DNA of 64,000 nt from a virus (taxonomy: Duplodnaviria; Caudoviricetes). Position numbers and translations under genes: made by a program. The notes beneath the pieces are model-generated. The model saw nothing but the letters and a program-made list of their open reading frames with translations, was not told the DNA's origin and did not search any database. Location: IMG/VR virus record IMGVR_UViG_3300047557_002530; one strand, written 5' to 3'. Position 1 is the stretch's first letter, and each line of letters opens with the position of its first letter. Shown here one piece after another: positions 47,756 through 58,787 of the stretch.

Positions 47756-48718
47756 ATGAAACTCAAAAACTTTATTGCTGTTGGTCTGATTGCTGCTCCT
47801 GTTGCTGCAGTTGCTGGACCTGCTCTGAATGGTGCAGGTGCCACCTTCCCAGCACCCATTTATCAACGATGGTTTCAAGACTATGCACGAACTACTGGGA
47901 ATAGGGTTAATTATCAGTCCGTTGGTTCTGGTGCTGGTGTTCGTCAATTCCTTGCGGGAACGGTTGACTTCGGAGCAAGTGACGAATCAATCTCCGCAGC
48001 AGATGCCGCCAAAGTAAAGCGTGGTGTCGTTCAAATTCCTATGGTGGGTGGAACGATTGCTGTTGCTTATAACAAACCTGGATGTTCTCTGAAACTCACT
48101 CAGAAGCAAACTGTTGATATTTTTGCTGGTCGCATCAAGGATTGGAAAGCACTTGGATGTGCTGCTGGTCCTATCACCACTGTGTACCGCTCTGATGGTT
48201 CTGGAACCACCTATGCATTCACTAACTCTCTTGATGCTTTTGGTGGATGGGGTCCAGGTGTAGGTAAGGCAGTTAAATGGCCTACTGGTGTTGGTGCAAA
48301 AGGAAATGAAGGTGTTTCTGGTCGCATCCGTCAAACCCCTGGTTCTATCGGTTATGTGAATACTGGATTTGTAAAAGCAAATCGTATTCAAGCAGCAGCA
48401 ATTCAAAACAAGGCAGGTAAGTTTGTTCTTCCCACTGCCGCAACTGGTGCCGCTGCTCTGAATAACATCAAACTGGACGCAAACCTTGCTGGGGAAAATC
48501 CAAATCCTGCTGGTGCAAATGCATATCCTATTTCTACTCTGACTTGGGTTCTTGCATATCGCACTGGTAATGGTGCTAAGACTGCCGATATTCGCGCTGC
48601 ATTGAACTATGCTCTGAGTTCTAAGGCACAATCTATTGCTGATGACTTGGGTTACGTTCCTCTTAGTGGTTCTATTTTGAATCGTTCAAGGATTGCTGTT
48701 GGTCGTATTAGTCAGTAA
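47756..48718 (+). CDS. pstS: Phosphate ABC transporter substrate-binding protein
   Basis: GAGATFPAP, YQSVGSGAG, DFGASD, RSDGSGTT, GNEGV. Confidence 0.96.
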   Translation: MKLKNFIAVGLIAAPVAAVAGPALNGAGATFPAPIYQRWFQDYARTTGNRVNYQSVGSGAGVRQFLAGTVDFGASDESISAADAAKVKRGVVQIPMVGGTIAVAYNKPGCSLKLTQKQTVDIFAGRIKDWKALGCAAGPITTVYRSDGSGTTYAFTNSLDAFGGWGPGVGKAVKWPTGVGAKGNEGVSGRIRQTPGSIGYVNTGFVKANRIQAAAIQNKAGKFVLPTAATGAAALNNIKLDANLAGENPNPAGANAYPISTLTWVLAYRTGNGAKTADIRAALNYALSSKAQSIADDLGYVPLSGSILNRSRIAVGRISQ

Positions 48719-49109: not shown

Positions 49110-49634
49110 ATGGTAGGTATAAAAATGAGAAATAAAACTTTTAATATTGGCGATAAAGTATGGATGCTGACTATTGTTGGGCATTCTTTATTAGAACAAA
49201 ATAATGGAAGAAAAAGAAATTACTATCAATGTAAATGTGATTGTGGAAGTGAAAAAATAGTTTACGTTGAATCTTACAAACTAAAAAGTGGGAGATTTAA
49301 ATCTTGTGGATGTAAAAGAGCATCCACTGGTGGCATATCTAACACTAAAAAGTATAGAATGTGGAAATCTGCACAAGAGCGTGCTATTAAAAAAGGATTA
49401 GAATTTTCTATACGAGTGGAAGATATTGAAATACCAAAAACTTGCCCTTTATTGAACATAACACTCATCGAAGGTGATAGAGAATGTACTCCTTCACTTG
49501 ATAGAATTGATAGTAAAAAAGGATATACTCCAGACAATGTGTGGGTTATATCTCATAGAGCAAATCAAATAAAAAATGATGCTACACTTGAAGAATTAAA
49601 ACTCATAACAGAAAACCTATCAAAAATAACTTGA
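49110..49634 (+). CDS. HNH homing endonuclease
   Basis: CDC...SCGC; SLDRIDSKKGY...NVWVISHRAN..KND; TATAAATA at 49092. Confidence 0.85.
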   Translation: MVGIKMRNKTFNIGDKVWMLTIVGHSLLEQNNGRKRNYYQCKCDCGSEKIVYVESYKLKSGRFKSCGCKRASTGGISNTKKYRMWKSAQERAIKKGLEFSIRVEDIEIPKTCPLLNITLIEGDRECTPSLDRIDSKKGYTPDNVWVISHRANQIKNDATLEELKLITENLSKIT

Positions 49635-53080: not shown

Positions 53081-54160
53081 ATGACTGCTACAATTTCACG
53101 TCAACAACAATCGAATACTTGGGAACAATTCTGCAACTGGGTTACTAGCACTGATAACCGTCTCTATGTAGGTTGGTTCGGAGTCCTGATGATTCCAACA
53201 TTGCTCGCCGCAACAATCTGCTTCATCATCGCATTTGTCGGTGCTCCCCCTGTAGACATTGATGGAATCCGTGAACCAGTCGCTGGTTCTCTAATGTATG
53301 GAAACAACATCATCTCTGGTGCTGTTATTCCTTCGTCCAACGCGATTGGACTGCACTTCTACCCCATCTGGGAAGCTGCTTCACTTGATGAGTGGCTTTA
53401 CAACGGCGGACCTTTCCAACTGGTAGTGTTCCACTTCCTCATCGGCATCTATGCTTATATGGGTCGTGAATGGGAACTCTCATACCGCCTAGGTATGCGT
53501 CCTTGGATCTGTGTTGCTTACTCTGCACCTGTTGCTGCTGCCAGCGCAGTGTTCCTAGTCTATCCTTTCGGTCAAGGTTCTTTCTCTGATGCAATGCCTC
53601 TGGGTATCTCTGGTACCTTCAACTACATGCTTGTTTTCCAGGCAGAACATAACATCCTGATGCACCCCTTCCACATGCTTGGAGTTGCTGGTGTCTTCGG
53701 TGGTTCACTGTTCTCTGCAATGCACGGTTCTCTAGTTACTTCCTCACTGGTTCGTGAAACCACCGAGCAAGAGTCGCAGAACTATGGTTACAAGTTCGGT
53801 CAAGAAGAAGAGACTTATAACATCGTTGCAGCACACGGTTATTTCGGTCGCCTGATCTTCCAATATGCTTCCTTCAATAACTCTCGTTCGCTACACTTCT
53901 TCCTTGCTGCTTGGCCTGTTGTCGGTATCTGGTTCACTGCTCTTGGTGTTAGCACCATGGCCTTTAACTTAAATGGCTTTAATTTCAACCAGTCTCTGCT
54001 TGATAGTCAGGGTCGTGTAGTTAACACCTGGGCTGATGTTCTTAACCGTGCTGGACTGGGAATGGAAGTGATGCACGAGAGAAATGCACATAACTTTCCT
54101 TTGGACCTGGCTGCTGCCGAAGCAACTCCTGTTGCTCTAACTGCACCTTCTATCGGTTGA
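53081..54160 (+). CDS. psbA: Photosystem II D1 protein (no intron)
   Basis: [13 protein letters not shown]...[14 protein letters not shown]. Confidence 0.99.
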
Positions 54161-54254: not shown

Positions 54255-54683
54255 ATGAAAACTTGCAACATTTGTGGAGAAACGAAATCACTTGATGAGT
54301 ATTATATCAATAATTTTGGATACCCTCACGGTAAATGTAAAAAGTGCTATGTTAAAAAACAGCAAGAAAAATATGACCCAATGAAAAAAAGAAACGAAAA
54401 CTTAAAAAGATGTTATGGAATAACACTCCAAGAATATAATGAAATGTTAGATAATCAAAATGGTAAATGTGCCACTTGTGGAACTACTGAACCAGGAGGT
54501 AGAAAATCTGGTAGGGGCGGTGGTGCTGATGTATTTGTAGTAGATCACTGCCACGATACTGGTAAAGTTAGAGGTCTTCTTTGTCATAGTTGTAATAGGG
54601 CTATGGGACTATTAGGAGATAATGTAAGCGTTATTGAAAGTATGATTAAATACCTTGAGCAGCACGAAATTAATGTCTCATAA
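54255..54683 (+). CDS. Endonuclease VII-family homing endonuclease (F-CphI-like position)
   Basis: CNIC, CKKC, CATC, VDHCHDTGKVRGLLCHSCN; directly downstream of psbA. Confidence 0.85.
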   Translation: MKTCNICGETKSLDEYYINNFGYPHGKCKKCYVKKQQEKYDPMKKRNENLKRCYGITLQEYNEMLDNQNGKCATCGTTEPGGRKSGRGGGADVFVVDHCHDTGKVRGLLCHSCNRAMGLLGDNVSVIESMIKYLEQHEINVS

Positions 54684-54795
54684 TACTCAACACGAACCTA
54701 TGCCTAACTGGGTAATCTGGGTAGGCGTAGGTATGATGGTATTTACGGTTCTTGTTTTTGTCTTATTCACTCTTGGGCAAATTTACTGGGGATAA
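54673..54795 (+). CDS. Small membrane protein
   Basis: MSHNTQHEPMPNWVIWVGVGMMVFTVLVFVLFTLGQIYWG. Confidence 0.55.
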   Translation: MSHNTQHEPMPNWVIWVGVGMMVFTVLVFVLFTLGQIYWG

Positions 54796-54808
54796 GTGCT
54801 AATACTCA

Positions 54809-54837
54809 TTGACTCTTATTATGAAGTATTGTAAACT
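54809..54837 (+). promoter_or_regulatory. Sigma70-type promoter in front of the psbD remnant
   Basis: TTGACT-N17-TAAACT. Confidence 0.6.
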
Positions 54838-54863
54838 AAATATGAGAAATCACATAGGAGGCT

Positions 54864-55010
54864 ATGACTTCTTCAACACTTTCACAACCAATTCAACAAA
54901 GGGGGTGGTTTGATGTCCTGGATGACTGGCTTAAACGAGATCGCTTTGTATTTGTGGGTTGGTCTGGACTATTACTTTTTCCCACTGCTTATTTGGCCCT
55001 TGACTGGTAG
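54864..55010 (+). pseudogene. psbD: Truncated 5' remnant of psbD (48 codons)
   Basis: [48 protein letters not shown]-stop; same GGAGGCTATGACTTCTTC start as the intact copy. Confidence 0.92.
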
Positions 55011-55122
55011 GACTGCTGAATGACTTTTCTGGGATTGTATCTAATCTTTATTGGTGTGAAGGGATTGTTTAGAGATTTACAGAGATACAGAGAACAAACT
55101 GATAATAGGTAAAAATATAAAA

Positions 55123-55180
55123 GACACTTTCTAAACTGGAACAGGGGCACTTCGCAGGTGCCCTTTTTGATGGTATAATA
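55123..55180 (+). promoter_or_regulatory. Cyanomyovirus early-type promoter
   Basis: CACTTTCTAAACTGG upstream element, GGGCAC/GTGCCC hairpin, TATAAT. Confidence 0.5.
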
Positions 55181-55203
55181 CTCTCATATACAAAGAGTTT
55201 CAA

Positions 55204-55599
55204 ATGCTAAAAACTAAAACTGTAAAGATAGTAAGTGTGAGTGATTGGGATGACTTTGTAATCCTTATCTATGGAAAGCATTACAGTTTTCAACAACAAG
55301 ATGGGTGTAAATCAAGAGGAACTGCTTATTTTACTGTTCCAAATCAATATGATGCGGAAGAGTTTGATAGTGAGGCAACTACAATCCCATTTGAAGTTAA
55401 TGGTGAAGAAATGGGTGTGAGTTTTGAAACTTGGTTGAATACAAATTTGGAGGATACTGCTTCACACTTTGAATCTGATTGGGAGAATAAGTTGTTCTGG
55501 GAAAGGAATTTTTATCCAGATGTAAACACAATTGTTTGGGACTTATACAAACGAGGATTGCTTGAAGAAGGTGAATATATGATTGATATTGATTGGTGA
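55204..55599 (+). CDS. Hypothetical acidic protein
   Basis: Intact ORF behind the early-type promoter. Confidence 0.65.
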   Translation: MLKTKTVKIVSVSDWDDFVILIYGKHYSFQQQDGCKSRGTAYFTVPNQYDAEEFDSEATTIPFEVNGEEMGVSFETWLNTNLEDTASHFESDWENKLFWERNFYPDVNTIVWDLYKRGLLEEGEYMIDIDW

Positions 55600-55660
55600 C
55601 TAAAAAGTAAAAATATTCATTTGTATAAATAATAATGTAGTTAACACAGTAGTAGTAAGA

Positions 55661-56242
55661 ATGAAACATAAGCACCATATTATTCCAAGACATATGGGTG
55701 GTAGTGATGACCCATCAAATCTTATTGAACTGACTGTGGAAGAACACGCAGAGGCACACAGAAAGTTGTGGGAGCAATATGGTAATATCAAAGATTATTG
55801 TGCTTGGAAAGGTTTAGAAGGAACTATTGGTAAAGAAGAGATTGTAAGGTTGCTGATGGACCCAACTGGAAGAGTTCATACAGAAGAAACCAAGAAGAAA
55901 ATGAGTGAGGCACATAAAGGCAAACCAAAGCATACACCTGAAAGTAAAGAAAAAATAAGTGAAGCAAGAAAAGGAAAGCCTTTGAGTGAGGAGCATAAAA
56001 GAAAAATAGGTGAGGCAGGTTTAGGTAATAAAAGATGTCTTGGAAATAAACTAACAGAAGAGCACAAAGAAAAACTTTCTAAAAGTATGAAAGGAAATAA
56101 AAATGCTTGTGGTCCTCAAAAAGTTAGTGAAGAAGCAAAGAAAAATAGAAGTGAAGCAACCAAAGAAAGATGGAGAAAATATAGAGAACAAAAAGGATTT
56201 GACCCTAACAAACCTATTGATGGTAGATACTCTAAAATATAG
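55661..56242 (+). CDS. HNH homing endonuclease with NUMOD3 repeats
   Basis: [29 protein letters not shown]; repeated HT/LS-EE-KKKMS; TATAAATA at 55624. Confidence 0.85.
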
Positions 56243-56342
56243 TGCCCGCAAGGGCACCTGCCGAAGGCAGTAAGTATAAATACACTTCCCTTTTTATCCA
56301 GTTTCCATTACAATAAATATGTAAAGTAATGTAAAGGAGGCT

Positions 56343-57407
56343 ATGACTTCTTCTGTTTTACAGACACCCTCCCAATCACAGCGTGGATGGTTTGATGTCC
56401 TTGATGATTGGTTGAAAAGGGACAGATTTGTGTTCGTAGGTTGGTCTGGCCTACTTTTATTTCCAACAGCATACCTCGCACTTGGTGGGTGGCTTACTGG
56501 TATTACATTTATCACTAGTTGGTATACACACGGTATTGCTTCAAGTTTTTTAGAAGGTTGTAATTTCTTAACAGCTGCGTTGAGTACCCCAGCAGATGCT
56601 CTCGGACATTCCCTTCTACTTCTCTGGGGTCCTGAGTCTCAAGGGGATTTCATCAGGTGGTGCCAACTTGGGGGACTCTGGACTTTTGTGGCGCTCCACG
56701 GATCTTTCTCTCTGATTGGATTCATGCTTCGTCAGTTTGAGATTGCTCGTCTTGTAGGCATTCGTCCTTATAATGCTATTGCATTCTCTGGACCCATTGC
56801 GGTCTTTGTGAGTGTCTTCCTGATGTATCCTCTGGGTCAATCCAGTTGGTTCTTTGCACCATCGTTTGGTGTTGCTGCTATCTTCAGGTTCCTTCTGTTC
56901 CTTCAGGGTTTCCACAACTGGACCCTCAACCCCTTCCATATGATGGGAGTTGCTGGTATACTGGGTGGAGCACTGCTCTGTGCTATTCACGGAGCAACCG
57001 TAGAAAACACACTATTTGAAGATGGTGACCAAGCAAATACCTTCAAAGCATTTGAACCGACACAGGAAGAAGAGACCTACTCTATGGTTACTGCTAACAG
57101 ATTCTGGTCTCAAATCTTCGGTATTGCGTTTAGTAATAAGCGTTGGCTTCACTTTTTTATGCTATTTGTTCCTGTTATGGGTTTGTGGACTTCCAGCATC
57201 GGTATCATTGGTCTTGCCCTTAATCTTCGTGCTTATGATTTTGTAAGTCAGGAGATTCGTGCTGCAGAAGATCCGGAATTTGAGACCTTCGTAACAAAGA
57301 ACATATTATTGAATGAGGGAATTCGTGCTTGGATGGCACCTGTAGACCAACCTGGAGCAAACTTTGTATTTCCAGAGGAAGTTTTGCCTCGTGGAAATGC
57401 TTTATGA
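56343..57407 (+). CDS. psbD: Photosystem II D2 protein
   Basis: [14 protein letters not shown]...[13 protein letters not shown]...[10 protein letters not shown]. Confidence 0.98.
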
Positions 57408-57436
57408 TATAAATAATTCTATCGTGCGGTAGAATT

Positions 57437-57883
57437 ATGGAAAAGATGGGAATGCTTACCATTCTTGATGAATGGTCTGATAAGGTTCACAGATACTGTA
57501 AAGTTCAGTGTGAATGTGGAACTATAAAAACAGTTCGCAGATCATCTATGAAACCTGGACAAACAGTATCTTGTGGATGTTATAGACGAGAACTTGATAG
57601 AAAGAAGGGGAGAGATCTTCGTTCACCTATGTGGTCTCGGGCAAAATATAGAGCAAAACAAAAGGGTCTGGATTTTAATATCACAAAAGAAGATATTGTT
57701 ATTCCAGACACCTGCCCTTTGTTAGGCACTCCTATGGAATCGCCATCATTAGATCGTATTGATTCTTCCAAAGGATATATCAAAGGTAATGTGTGGGTCA
57801 TCAGTAATAGAGCAAATACTTTAAAAAATGATGCTACATTACAAGAACTCAAAACATTAGTTGAAAATCTGGAGAAACTATGA
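57437..57883 (+). CDS. HNH homing endonuclease (paralog of 49110..49634)
   Basis: CEC...SCGC; SLDRIDSSKGY...NVWVISNRAN..KND; TATAAATA at 57408. Confidence 0.85.
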   Translation: MEKMGMLTILDEWSDKVHRYCKVQCECGTIKTVRRSSMKPGQTVSCGCYRRELDRKKGRDLRSPMWSRAKYRAKQKGLDFNITKEDIVIPDTCPLLGTPMESPSLDRIDSSKGYIKGNVWVISNRANTLKNDATLQELKTLVENLEKL

Positions 57884-58026
57884 AAGATACTTCTACAAAT
57901 CAACTTCCACCAAATCAAAAATACATTGGGTGGAAAGAAGTAAATGAAAAAGAATTTGATGAGTTGTTTCCTCCCATCCAAAAGAAAAATCGTGAGGAAG
58001 TTCTACCGCGAGGTAATGCACTCTAA
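57880..58026 (+). pseudogene. Small ORF ending in the stranded psbD 3' end ([10 protein letters not shown])
   Basis: GAGGAAGTTCTACCGCGAGGTAATGCACTCTAA at 57994-58026, followed by a terminator. Confidence 0.8.
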
Positions 58027-58245
58027 AAATAAATAAAAGGAGTTCTCTGAACTCCTTTTTTTATGCTCCTTATTCTTATTCTTTTTCAACTCTTTGGAAT
58101 CCTAATGTTTATATTATCTGTTATGCAAGACCTATGATAACTTCTACAACACCATATAAATTGGCAGAGATCATTAGAGATACTTGGCCAAACCTTTACA
58201 GACCGCCAATAAAGACTTATAATCAATCAAAAGCACAAGAAAAGA

Positions 58246-58530
58246 ATGTATGACTATTGGGTGGTGACAGACAAAACCACAGGTAGAGTAATCGCTCATT
58301 GCGGGGAAGAGAATGATGCATTGATGTTAGTTGGATTTGATAAAGATAAAAGAAATTATCGTAAACAAAAGTTTATTCTGGATCAGGTCATTACAGTAAC
58401 ATCAACAACAGATAAACAACTTCCTGGTCAATTGGGTTTACCTGCAGCAAAAGAAGAACTTCCTCCTATGGATCTTCAACAACAAGTATGGTTGCCTGAG
58501 GGACAGGGAATTCCAGTTAACGCTAAATAA
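58246..58530 (+). CDS. Hypothetical protein
   Basis: MYDYWVVTDKTTGRVIAHCG; intact ORF. Confidence 0.6.
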   Translation: MYDYWVVTDKTTGRVIAHCGEENDALMLVGFDKDKRNYRKQKFILDQVITVTSTTDKQLPGQLGLPAAKEELPPMDLQQQVWLPEGQGIPVNAK

Positions 58531-58550
58531 CTTTCAGTTTTATAACAATT

Positions 58551-58787
58551 ATGAAATTTACAGTTTATTCAAAAGACGGTTGCCCATATTGCACAAAGGT
58601 TCAACAAGTGCTAGAGTTGGCACAACTACAATACGTAGTCTACAAATTGAATACTGATTTTACTCGTGATGAGTTTTATGCTGAGTTTGGAGAAGGTTCT
58701 ACCTTTCCTCAAGTAATTATTAATGACAAACACATTGGTGGGTGTTCGGATACCGTTCAATATCTACAGGAGCAAAAATTAGTTTAA
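58551..58787 (+). CDS. Glutaredoxin
   Basis: CPYC, TFPQV, IGG. Confidence 0.92.
   Translation: MKFTVYSKDGCPYCTKVQQVLELAQLQYVVYKLNTDFTRDEFYAEFGEGSTFPQVIINDKHIGGCSDTVQYLQEQKLV

Follow-up and report, generated by a model that had tools for sequence, protein, structure and literature searches.

Free-standing homing-endonuclease cassettes probably invaded both ends of a cyanophage psbD gene independently and without an intron

How does a phage come to carry one intact copy of the photosynthesis gene psbD with a stranded second copy of one of its ends on each side? The question is raised by the viral record IMGVR_UViG_3300047557_002530, a 64,000-nucleotide (nt) stretch of DNA referred to here as the window, which holds the psbA-psbD block of a T4-like cyanophage with all genes on the + strand. 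Within this block, the intact ("working") psbD (56343-57407) encodes a full-length D2 protein of 354 amino acids (aa) (Pfam Photo_RC 242.5 bits; 92% aa identity to the D2 of S-PM2); a nuclease gene lies on either side of it, and beyond each nuclease gene lies a remnant of the nearer psbD end. A first-pass annotation made from the letters alone had described these features and had proposed that each endonuclease inserted into psbD and brought a replacement end with it. All of the features were present, and comparison with relatives led us to conclude, with a probability of about 0.8, that free-standing homing-endonuclease cassettes invaded the two ends of psbD in two independent events of intronless homing.

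The window was compared with about 160 related metagenomic loci (L-numbers; L165 is S-PM2, AJ630128.1, and L163 and L164 are contigs from a metagenome collection) and with public sequencing runs (X-numbers). For each of the two nucleases, 80 viral-contig loci were taken and psbD was located in each, giving 77 informative loci. Alleles of psbD without an adjoining nuclease cassette are called naive or nuclease-free.

The stranded 5ʹ end (54864-55010) consists of codons 1-47 of psbD with a native ribosome-binding site (RBS), in a 48-codon open reading frame (ORF). Its homology to psbD stopped at 55002 in all comparisons with relatives; ACTGG and a stop follow, and this ACTGG is possibly psbD again after an 11-nt deletion. 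The remnant and the intact gene share the start context GGAGGCT-ATG, with the RBS and the first 11 bases alike. As the first-pass annotation had observed, the two copies encode nearly the same protein and diverge synonymously: over codons 1-47 they were 89% identical in amino acids and 68% in nucleotides, with 24 synonymous and 5 non-synonymous codon differences. The remnant was 92-94% identical in nucleotides to nuclease-free alleles, compared with 67-77% to nuclease-linked alleles (Mann-Whitney p = 1e-5), and together with its upstream flank it was 88% identical to S-PM2. The intact 5ʹ end was 100% identical to L083, L089 and L091, 96.5% to L084-86, and 65-75% to all others.

In a tree of the first 141 nt, every nuclease-linked allele fell on one side of a single branch. 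The remnants of the window and of L163 nested among nuclease-free alleles, and the intact psbD start sat on a long branch in a clade of nuclease-linked alleles only, with 99% support in the Shimodaira-Hasegawa-like approximate likelihood ratio test (SH-aLRT). The nuclease label changed once on this 5ʹ tree and nine times on the core tree (nt 259-1002). Separate trees of the 5ʹ end and the core had been suggested at first pass, and in them it was the remnant, and not the intact start, that grouped with the nuclease-free alleles. Judged by these comparisons, the 5ʹ remnant is the native copy and the intact start is foreign. The imported, recoded start comprises the RBS and approximately the first 230-346 nt of the intact gene (56313-56688), a tract about 100% identical to L083/L164. 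Population-wide, the stretch in which alleles linked to an upstream nuclease differed from the nuclease-free consensus was psbD nt 16-255, with no difference left at nt 256. A hairpin upstream of the intact psbD start was no better than that of shuffled sequence (z = -0.9).

Between the remnant and the imported start lies the body of the 5ʹ cassette (55003-56312), which was about 100% identical in L164, L083 and L163. It is made up of the junction, orf30 (55020-55112; conserved in L116, L084 and L047), a hairpin with a promoter-like site (about 55140-55179), orf131 (55204-55599; phrog_27943, unknown function), a nuclease gene (55661-56242) and a spacer. The early-promoter ORF reported at first pass corresponds to orf131; a sigma-70-like consensus site, whose -10 element is of the extended type, stands before it as a pattern match only. 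The 5ʹ cassette can do without orf131: in a variant contig of run X4, orf30 is joined directly to the region upstream of the nuclease gene (55121 to 55620), and other 5ʹ cassettes carry unrelated sequence in this slot. The nuclease gene matched phrog_655 (homing endonuclease, 82.9 bits), and its product matched Pfam NUMOD3 (67.3 bits) in three stretches C-terminal to the nuclease domain. Residues 4-35 retained the HH, GG-D, N and H positions (HH..GG..D..N..H) when aligned to HNH domains of known structure. With the motif and the repeats in place, the predicted product qualifies as an HNH homing endonuclease with NUMOD3 repeats (T4 Mob-like/I-HmuI-like).

The 3ʹ end presents the same picture with a different nuclease. 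The imported, recoded 3ʹ end of psbD (57348-57407) was 97-100% identical to L003 from 57348 onward, compared with 67-87% before this point, and in alleles linked to a downstream nuclease the departure from nuclease-free alleles was concentrated in the last 30 nt of psbD. The stranded 3ʹ end (57994-58026) comprises ten codons and a stop, and 27-30 of its 33 nt matched most nuclease-free alleles. It encodes the same ten residues as the intact 3ʹ end and differs from it in 9 of 33 bases, all synonymous except at the stop codon, in agreement with the recoding that had been noted. Behind it stands the native psbD terminator hairpin (58035-58059; 11-bp stem plus T run), and the same terminator follows the psbD stop in L083, L093, L095, L116 and L164; over 57994-58600 the window was 87% identical to the psbD 3ʹ end and downstream flank of L083. 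The alignments thus identify the 3ʹ remnant as native and the intact 3ʹ end as derived from cassette-bearing alleles.

Two departures from the D2 consensus had been attributed to the intact termini, and only one of them belongs to an imported end. QPGAN lies inside the block common to the cassette relatives L003/L004 and was also found in L013/L015; cyanophage D2 proteins vary at the QPHEN position, with QPGAN, QPGER, QPHEQ and other forms. FVTKN (57288-57302) was considered as part of the imported 3ʹ block and rejected, since the L003-identical tract does not reach it and it is confined to this genome: FYTKN stands in the 50-odd related loci, apart from FTTKN in one, and the substituted codon is TAT (Tyr) in contigs of relatives from runs X4 and X15.

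Directly after the stop of the intact psbD comes a regulatory-looking segment (57408-57438), in which TATAAATA, a T4 late-promoter-like sequence at 57408-57415, overlaps the 5ʹ arm of an 11-bp hairpin. The AU of the nuclease start codon is base-paired within this hairpin (-10.7 kcal/mol, z = -3.4). Cassettes of the L013 type have a different, equivalent and compensated hairpin, and the segment with TATAAATA and the hairpin is conserved across cassettes. This arrangement of promoter and hairpin would be expected to confine the nuclease to late expression. The nuclease gene itself (57437-57883; phrog_3322 endonuclease, 112.8 bits) encodes 148 aa. It is followed by the tail of the 3ʹ cassette (57880-57993), 114 nt shared at 100% identity by L013-L015 as far as the junction that follows GAGGAAGT. 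A 48-codon ORF (57880-58026) opens in this tail and runs into the native remnant, so that its last ten codons are the end of psbD.

The 148-aa protein gave no Pfam HNH, NCBIfam or PDB sequence match. Its AlphaFold2 (AF2) model (predicted local distance difference test, pLDDT, 90) has a Zn-ribbon/SH3-like N-domain and a beta-beta-alpha-Me C-domain, with the strand-strand-helix unit at residues 103-132. Residues 58-148 matched the structures of PacI (Z 6.5), Hpy99I (Z 5.0), Gme HNH (Z 4.5) and McrA (Z 4.0), and Foldseek returned PacI with a probability of 0.99 (E 0.019). Among 27 homologues, D106 and N127 were invariant, and the residue after D106 was R, K or Q. Y114 was also invariant and could replace the missing histidine, as has been proposed for PacI. 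On the strength of the model we file the protein as an HNH-like beta-beta-alpha-Me nuclease without a canonical HNH. The earlier description of two HNH genes thus fits the upstream gene, which has the motif, and fits the 148-aa gene in the looser sense of HNH-like, the canonical first histidine being absent. A paralogue of the 148-aa nuclease (46% identity) is encoded at 49110-49634, about 400 bp downstream of a pstS-like gene (47756-48718) for a phosphate-binding protein, and may mark another nuclease-targeted auxiliary gene.

Could each end simply have been duplicated in place and then diverged, or could the contig be an assembly chimera? Two copies of each terminus do stand in one contig. 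Against this, the copies of the start were only 68% identical with many synonymous differences, and each copy was 92-100% identical to other genomes. The junctions also recurred outside this contig, both in independent contigs and in the assemblies of several studies: both were spanned by contigs of run X1 with zero mismatches, the exact 33-nt 5ʹ junction sequence occurred in two independent metagenome contigs (L163 and L164), and the 3ʹ junction recurred in L013, L014 and L015. A search of the viral contig collection for the exact 5ʹ junction gave no match. We reject this explanation as almost certainly wrong.

The two nuclease families were each found beside psbD in many other loci. Proteins of the 148-aa family (48-97% identity) were encoded directly downstream of psbD in 52 of the 77 informative loci, as they are in the isolate S-SKS1, and proteins of the HNH-NUMOD3 family (72-100% identity) were encoded directly upstream in 21 of the 77. 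L164 (a 93-kb contig) and L083 have orf131 and the HNH-NUMOD3 gene at 100% aa identity and no downstream nuclease; their psbD has a native-type 3ʹ end whose stop leads straight into the terminator, which is an empty 3ʹ site. L003/L004 and L013-L015 have the downstream nuclease and no upstream cassette, and in L007, L013 and L020, orf46, the native left neighbor of psbD, leads straight into psbD, which is an empty 5ʹ site. Loose ends of contigs in runs X1 and X4 ran from 55002 into uninterrupted native psbD, and ordinary psbD arrived at 57993/57994, indicating that empty and filled alleles coexist in the same samples. What is expected of a mobile element was therefore found at this locus: filled/empty polymorphism at a fixed site, with the native copy like relatives and the in-gene copy foreign.

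Mapping of the crossovers separated the two imported blocks, in line with the proposal that each endonuclease brought its own replacement end. Identity to L164 was about 100% between 54769 and about 56688 (psbD nt ~346), and identity to L083 was likewise about 100% between about 55159 and about 56574 (psbD nt ~230); past these breakpoints it fell to 72-93%. At the other end, the window was 97-100% identical to L003 over 57348-57804 and then 97-100% identical to L013/L014 up to the junction (57805-57995), which means that the 3ʹ cassette combines two lineages, recombined within the conserved catalytic region. The psbD core between the blocks was 80-88% identical to all cassette relatives, and its nearest relative over nt 259-1002 reached 88%. 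A psbD apparently lacking codons 58-117 was seen in L043 (2982-3839), either a deletion allele or a misassembly.

These data bear on a one-step origin, in which a single foreign segment with a complete psbD and both nucleases, a ready-made island of homing-endonuclease genes (HEG-island), replaced the interior of the resident psbD and stranded both of its ends. Such an event would account for both remnants flanking one continuous insert; psbD loci with both nucleases exist (L047-54, L084-86 and L094), and HEG-islands are proposed to move as units (PMC10055350). However, the two blocks have different closest relatives, in which each is found alone (L164/L083 versus L003/L013), the intervening core matches neither donor, and the 3ʹ cassette is itself recombinant. 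Moreover, L164 shares the identical 5ʹ junction and has no 3ʹ cassette, so that L164/L083 come close to the window lineage with a single cassette. We therefore consider a one-step replacement unlikely.

A further alternative makes the nucleases passive passengers: the region from psbA to beyond psbD would be a general recombination hotspot, and the duplications would stem from illegitimate recombination unrelated to any cleavage of psbD. In line with this, the psbD core is mosaic without a nuclease, the cargo between remnant and nuclease varies as do the junctions, and nuclease classes are interchangeable at the psbD slots, with a GIY-YIG-like gene upstream of psbD in S-PM2. This alternative does not readily explain why two specific nuclease families are tightly linked to the two psbD ends in tens of diverged contigs, why the divergence of linked alleles is limited to the gene ends that adjoin each nuclease, or why different backgrounds share identical junctions at which the crossovers lie. 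We rate this alternative as very unlikely.

The same near-identical 5ʹ cassette was found in a diverged background. L163 differs from the window in psbA (85% nt identity) and in its EndoVII-like protein (47% aa identity), and its remnant is an allele of its own from nt 1 to about nt 125; some 20 nt before the junction, it turns 100% identical to the window and stays so onward through the cassette. At the other end, the window, L013 and L014 share the cassette tail exactly and then, after GAGGAAGT, have three different native psbD ends and terminators. Both patterns would be expected if the cassette entered naive psbD by break repair through the remnant and not through the imported terminus, and the L163 crossover gives comparative support for the remnant acting as a recombination arm.

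The junctions themselves came in several types. A second 5ʹ type, at psbD nt ~78, occurs in L047 and L084-86 and keeps more of the left end of the cassette than the window does, so neither 5ʹ type is a simple deletion of the other. On the 3ʹ side, the nuclease reading frame of L010, L011, L016 and L017 continues as a fusion into the ten-codon psbD end and stop; L032 has a 28-codon remnant after the nuclease and an extra ORF; L003-L009 join at the psbD stop; and L020 joins inside the next gene. In L052 (2895-3455) and L055 (1140-1688), the downstream nuclease ORF ends in ...SQKGNPL, which may be a decayed in-frame fusion to ...LPRGNAL. We considered the remnant ends as marks of one exact cleavage site and discarded this idea, with two 5ʹ junction types (nt ~78 and ~141) and at least four 3ʹ types at hand. 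The reading of the 5ʹ junction, GCCCTTG joined to ACTGG, as a short deletion at a cut site is thus acceptable as regards a possible 11-nt deletion and unsupported as regards a single cut site. Because the 5ʹ and 3ʹ junctions are so varied, an illegitimate event probably made the initial join beside the remnant, of the kind described for one-sided-homology repair in T4.

We propose that the cassettes would spread by double-strand-break repair, each carrying its nuclease gene and a diverged copy of the adjacent psbD terminus. The 5ʹ cassette would bring an RBS and roughly the first 230-350 nt of psbD, and the 3ʹ cassette the last ~60 nt and the stop codon; as each supplies a replacement terminus, psbD would stay whole without an intron or intein. 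The displaced native terminus would remain beside the cassette and serve as the homology arm on that side when the cassette enters a new genome, a role suggested by its being far closer to naive psbD than the imported terminus is (~68% to naive). After the first join, later spread would proceed by homologous recombination. In this scheme both proteins presumably cut naive psbD near the junctions (~nt 141-255 and ~27 nt before the stop), and the imported termini would be resistant to cutting.

Several points weigh against two invasions by homing. Cleavage of psbD by either protein, and its position, are deduced from the arrangement of the sequences. The best structural match of the 148-aa protein is modest (PacI, Z 6.5), and the protein has no canonical first HNH histidine and hence no canonical D-H general base; the HNH-NUMOD3 protein scored 21.2 bits against Pfam HNH, just below the gathering cut-off of 21.4. 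The cyanophage psbD core recombines without nuclease involvement as well, and the remnant junctions, which differ among lineages, could stem from later deletions. The 5ʹ remnant still holds the native target sequence, so that either the genome tolerates it or the true target spans or lies beyond nt 141. In addition, free-standing nucleases of T4 usually cut hundreds of bp from their own gene (PMC2988022), and the junctions therefore need not mark cut sites.

A stronger version of the homing account is possible, and we hold it only tentatively, leaning somewhat against it. Both cassettes would be intron-like, splicing-free, site-specific elements that, working from the two ends, make psbD a mobile unit and are a main driver of the known cyanophage psbD mosaicism. 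The cut that each makes in naive psbD would fall only a few bases from the place where the cassette inserts, the recoded terminus with its own expression signals would be immune to cleavage and too diverged to recombine the element out, and the displaced native terminus would be deliberately kept as a homing arm.

The splicing-free strategy used twice on one gene, as it was put at first pass, is supported by our comparisons and is not novel in principle. Fungal mitochondrial mobile ORFs (mORFs) carry a foreign gene C-terminus, in atp6 of Allomyces macrogynus and in atp6, atp9, cox2 and nad3 of Glomus (PMC3630166, Beaudet et al. 2013, citing Paquin et al. 1994); the inserted and native copies are about as far apart as those of psbD here (63.5% identity in Glomus atp6), and the native copy matches close relatives (PMC3630166). 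The psbD 3ʹ cassette resembles them in having an endonuclease ORF near the 3ʹ end of the gene with a diverged replacement C-terminal segment, in the duplication of the native C-terminus downstream, and in the nuclease ORF being sometimes in frame with the gene remnant (here L010, L011 and L016). Unlike the organellar mORFs, whose enzymes are LAGLIDADG or GIY-YIG, the enzyme here is of the beta-beta-alpha-Me kind and resides in a phage; the 3ʹ nuclease gene stands apart from psbD, after its stop codon, and has a late-promoter-like site and a hairpin to itself; and beside the C-terminal replacement, the only form described for mORFs, there is a mirror-image 5ʹ cassette that replaces the start and RBS.

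Islands comparable in organization are known from ICP1-like vibriophages and other phages (Barth, Dunham and Seed 2023, PMC10055350). In these HEG-islands, essential or core genes are bracketed by homing-endonuclease genes, the islands stay >90% identical even where the phages that carry them have diverged elsewhere, small ORFs derived from pieces of the cargo gene are suggested recombination substrates, and nuclease classes swap at one slot (PMC10055350). The psbD region agrees on bracketing, conservation, cargo fragments and interchangeable nuclease classes. It differs in that the cargo is an auxiliary metabolic gene of cyanophage photosynthesis and in the L163 crossover inside the remnant. 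psbD had been called essential at first pass, which is too strong: it is absent from 4 of 16 tabulated cyanomyoviruses (PMC3037559) and is better termed an important auxiliary gene.

The T4 Seg and Mob enzymes provide a precedent for intronless homing and for illegitimate repair with one-sided homology (review, Edgell, Gibb and Belfort 2010, PMC2988022). Shared features are free-standing HNH genes in a T4-like genome, flank co-conversion, donor resistance by target polymorphism, and microhomology joins when one flank has no homology. In T4-type phages, a late promoter and a hairpin limit the translation of I-TevI, segB and mobE to late transcripts (PMC2988022), and the layout upstream of the 148-aa nuclease gene is of this late-promoter and inhibitory-hairpin type. 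In contrast to the T4 enzymes, which are usually intergenic and have no partial gene duplicates, the insert here lies inside a reading frame. Co-conversion extends over at most about 20 nt on the remnant side, more in the manner of intron-encoded enzymes, which cut no farther than 25 bp from the insertion site.

A characterised homing endonuclease of S-PM2, F-CphI, targets psbA and cooperates with an intron, according to the account of Zeng, Bonocora and Shub 2009 as cited in PMC3037559. Like F-CphI, the nucleases here are free-standing and stand beside a cyanophage photosystem gene, and a 41% homologue of F-CphI lies after psbA in the window. Unlike F-CphI, for which duplicated gene ends do not figure in that cited account, the two psbD cassettes have duplicated gene ends, and their nucleases belong to families other than that of F-CphI. 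We found no report of psbD gene-end duplication by nucleases in the open-access papers searched, which is weak evidence, and in the same open-access literature we did not find the 5ʹ form, with gene start and RBS replaced, described. Splicing-free homing with a carried terminus is therefore already known as a principle, and the psbD instance and the 5ʹ form are new to the literature searched.

The genes upstream complete the block. psbA (53081-54160) encodes D1, is uninterrupted and has 92-97% aa identity to psbA of related loci. The F-CphI homologue is an EndoVII-family free-standing nuclease (54255-54683; Pfam Endonuclease_7 82.9 bits; PHROG endonuclease VII), with 41% aa identity and a position after psbA like that of F-CphI. 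With psbA intronless here, the psbA-psbD block thus holds three nuclease genes. orf46 (54655-54795; phrog_7358) encodes a small membrane protein and forms the native left flank of psbD. In S-PM2, the gene directly upstream of psbD, S-PM2p178 (L165 1973-2602, annotated as hypothetical), has an N-terminal GIY-YIG-like motif and NUMOD3-like repeats; from its sequence, this slot seems to hold a different nuclease class in that phage.

As for the host phage, no record in the phage collection of isolates spanned at least 80% of the region, and the best psbD match there was S-PM2 (82%); marine Synechococcus phages come nearest in this collection, with about 80% identity. At least half of the stretch (window 54700-58200, runs X1-X14) was present in public runs from at least seven studies, and the samples were all freshwater or lake metagenomes except one crustacean-associated set. 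The RNA-library contigs that matched it belonged to related alleles and not to the window's own copies. The window phage is probably a freshwater picocyanobacterial myovirus without a close sequenced relative.

The locus offers a natural series of homing, with empty sites, filled sites, several junction types and mapped crossovers side by side, and it illustrates how homing endonucleases may settle in the interior of a protein-coding gene without an intron or intein. Both nuclease families are candidate site-specific nucleases whose natural target region is defined. Neither 48-codon ORF is a new gene: the one at 54864 is a gene stump, and the one at 57880 a fusion of cassette and stump. Phylogenies of psbD built from the gene ends follow the nuclease cassettes and not the phage, and cassette homing may be one specific reason for the mosaic structure and exchange long observed in cyanophage photosystem genes.

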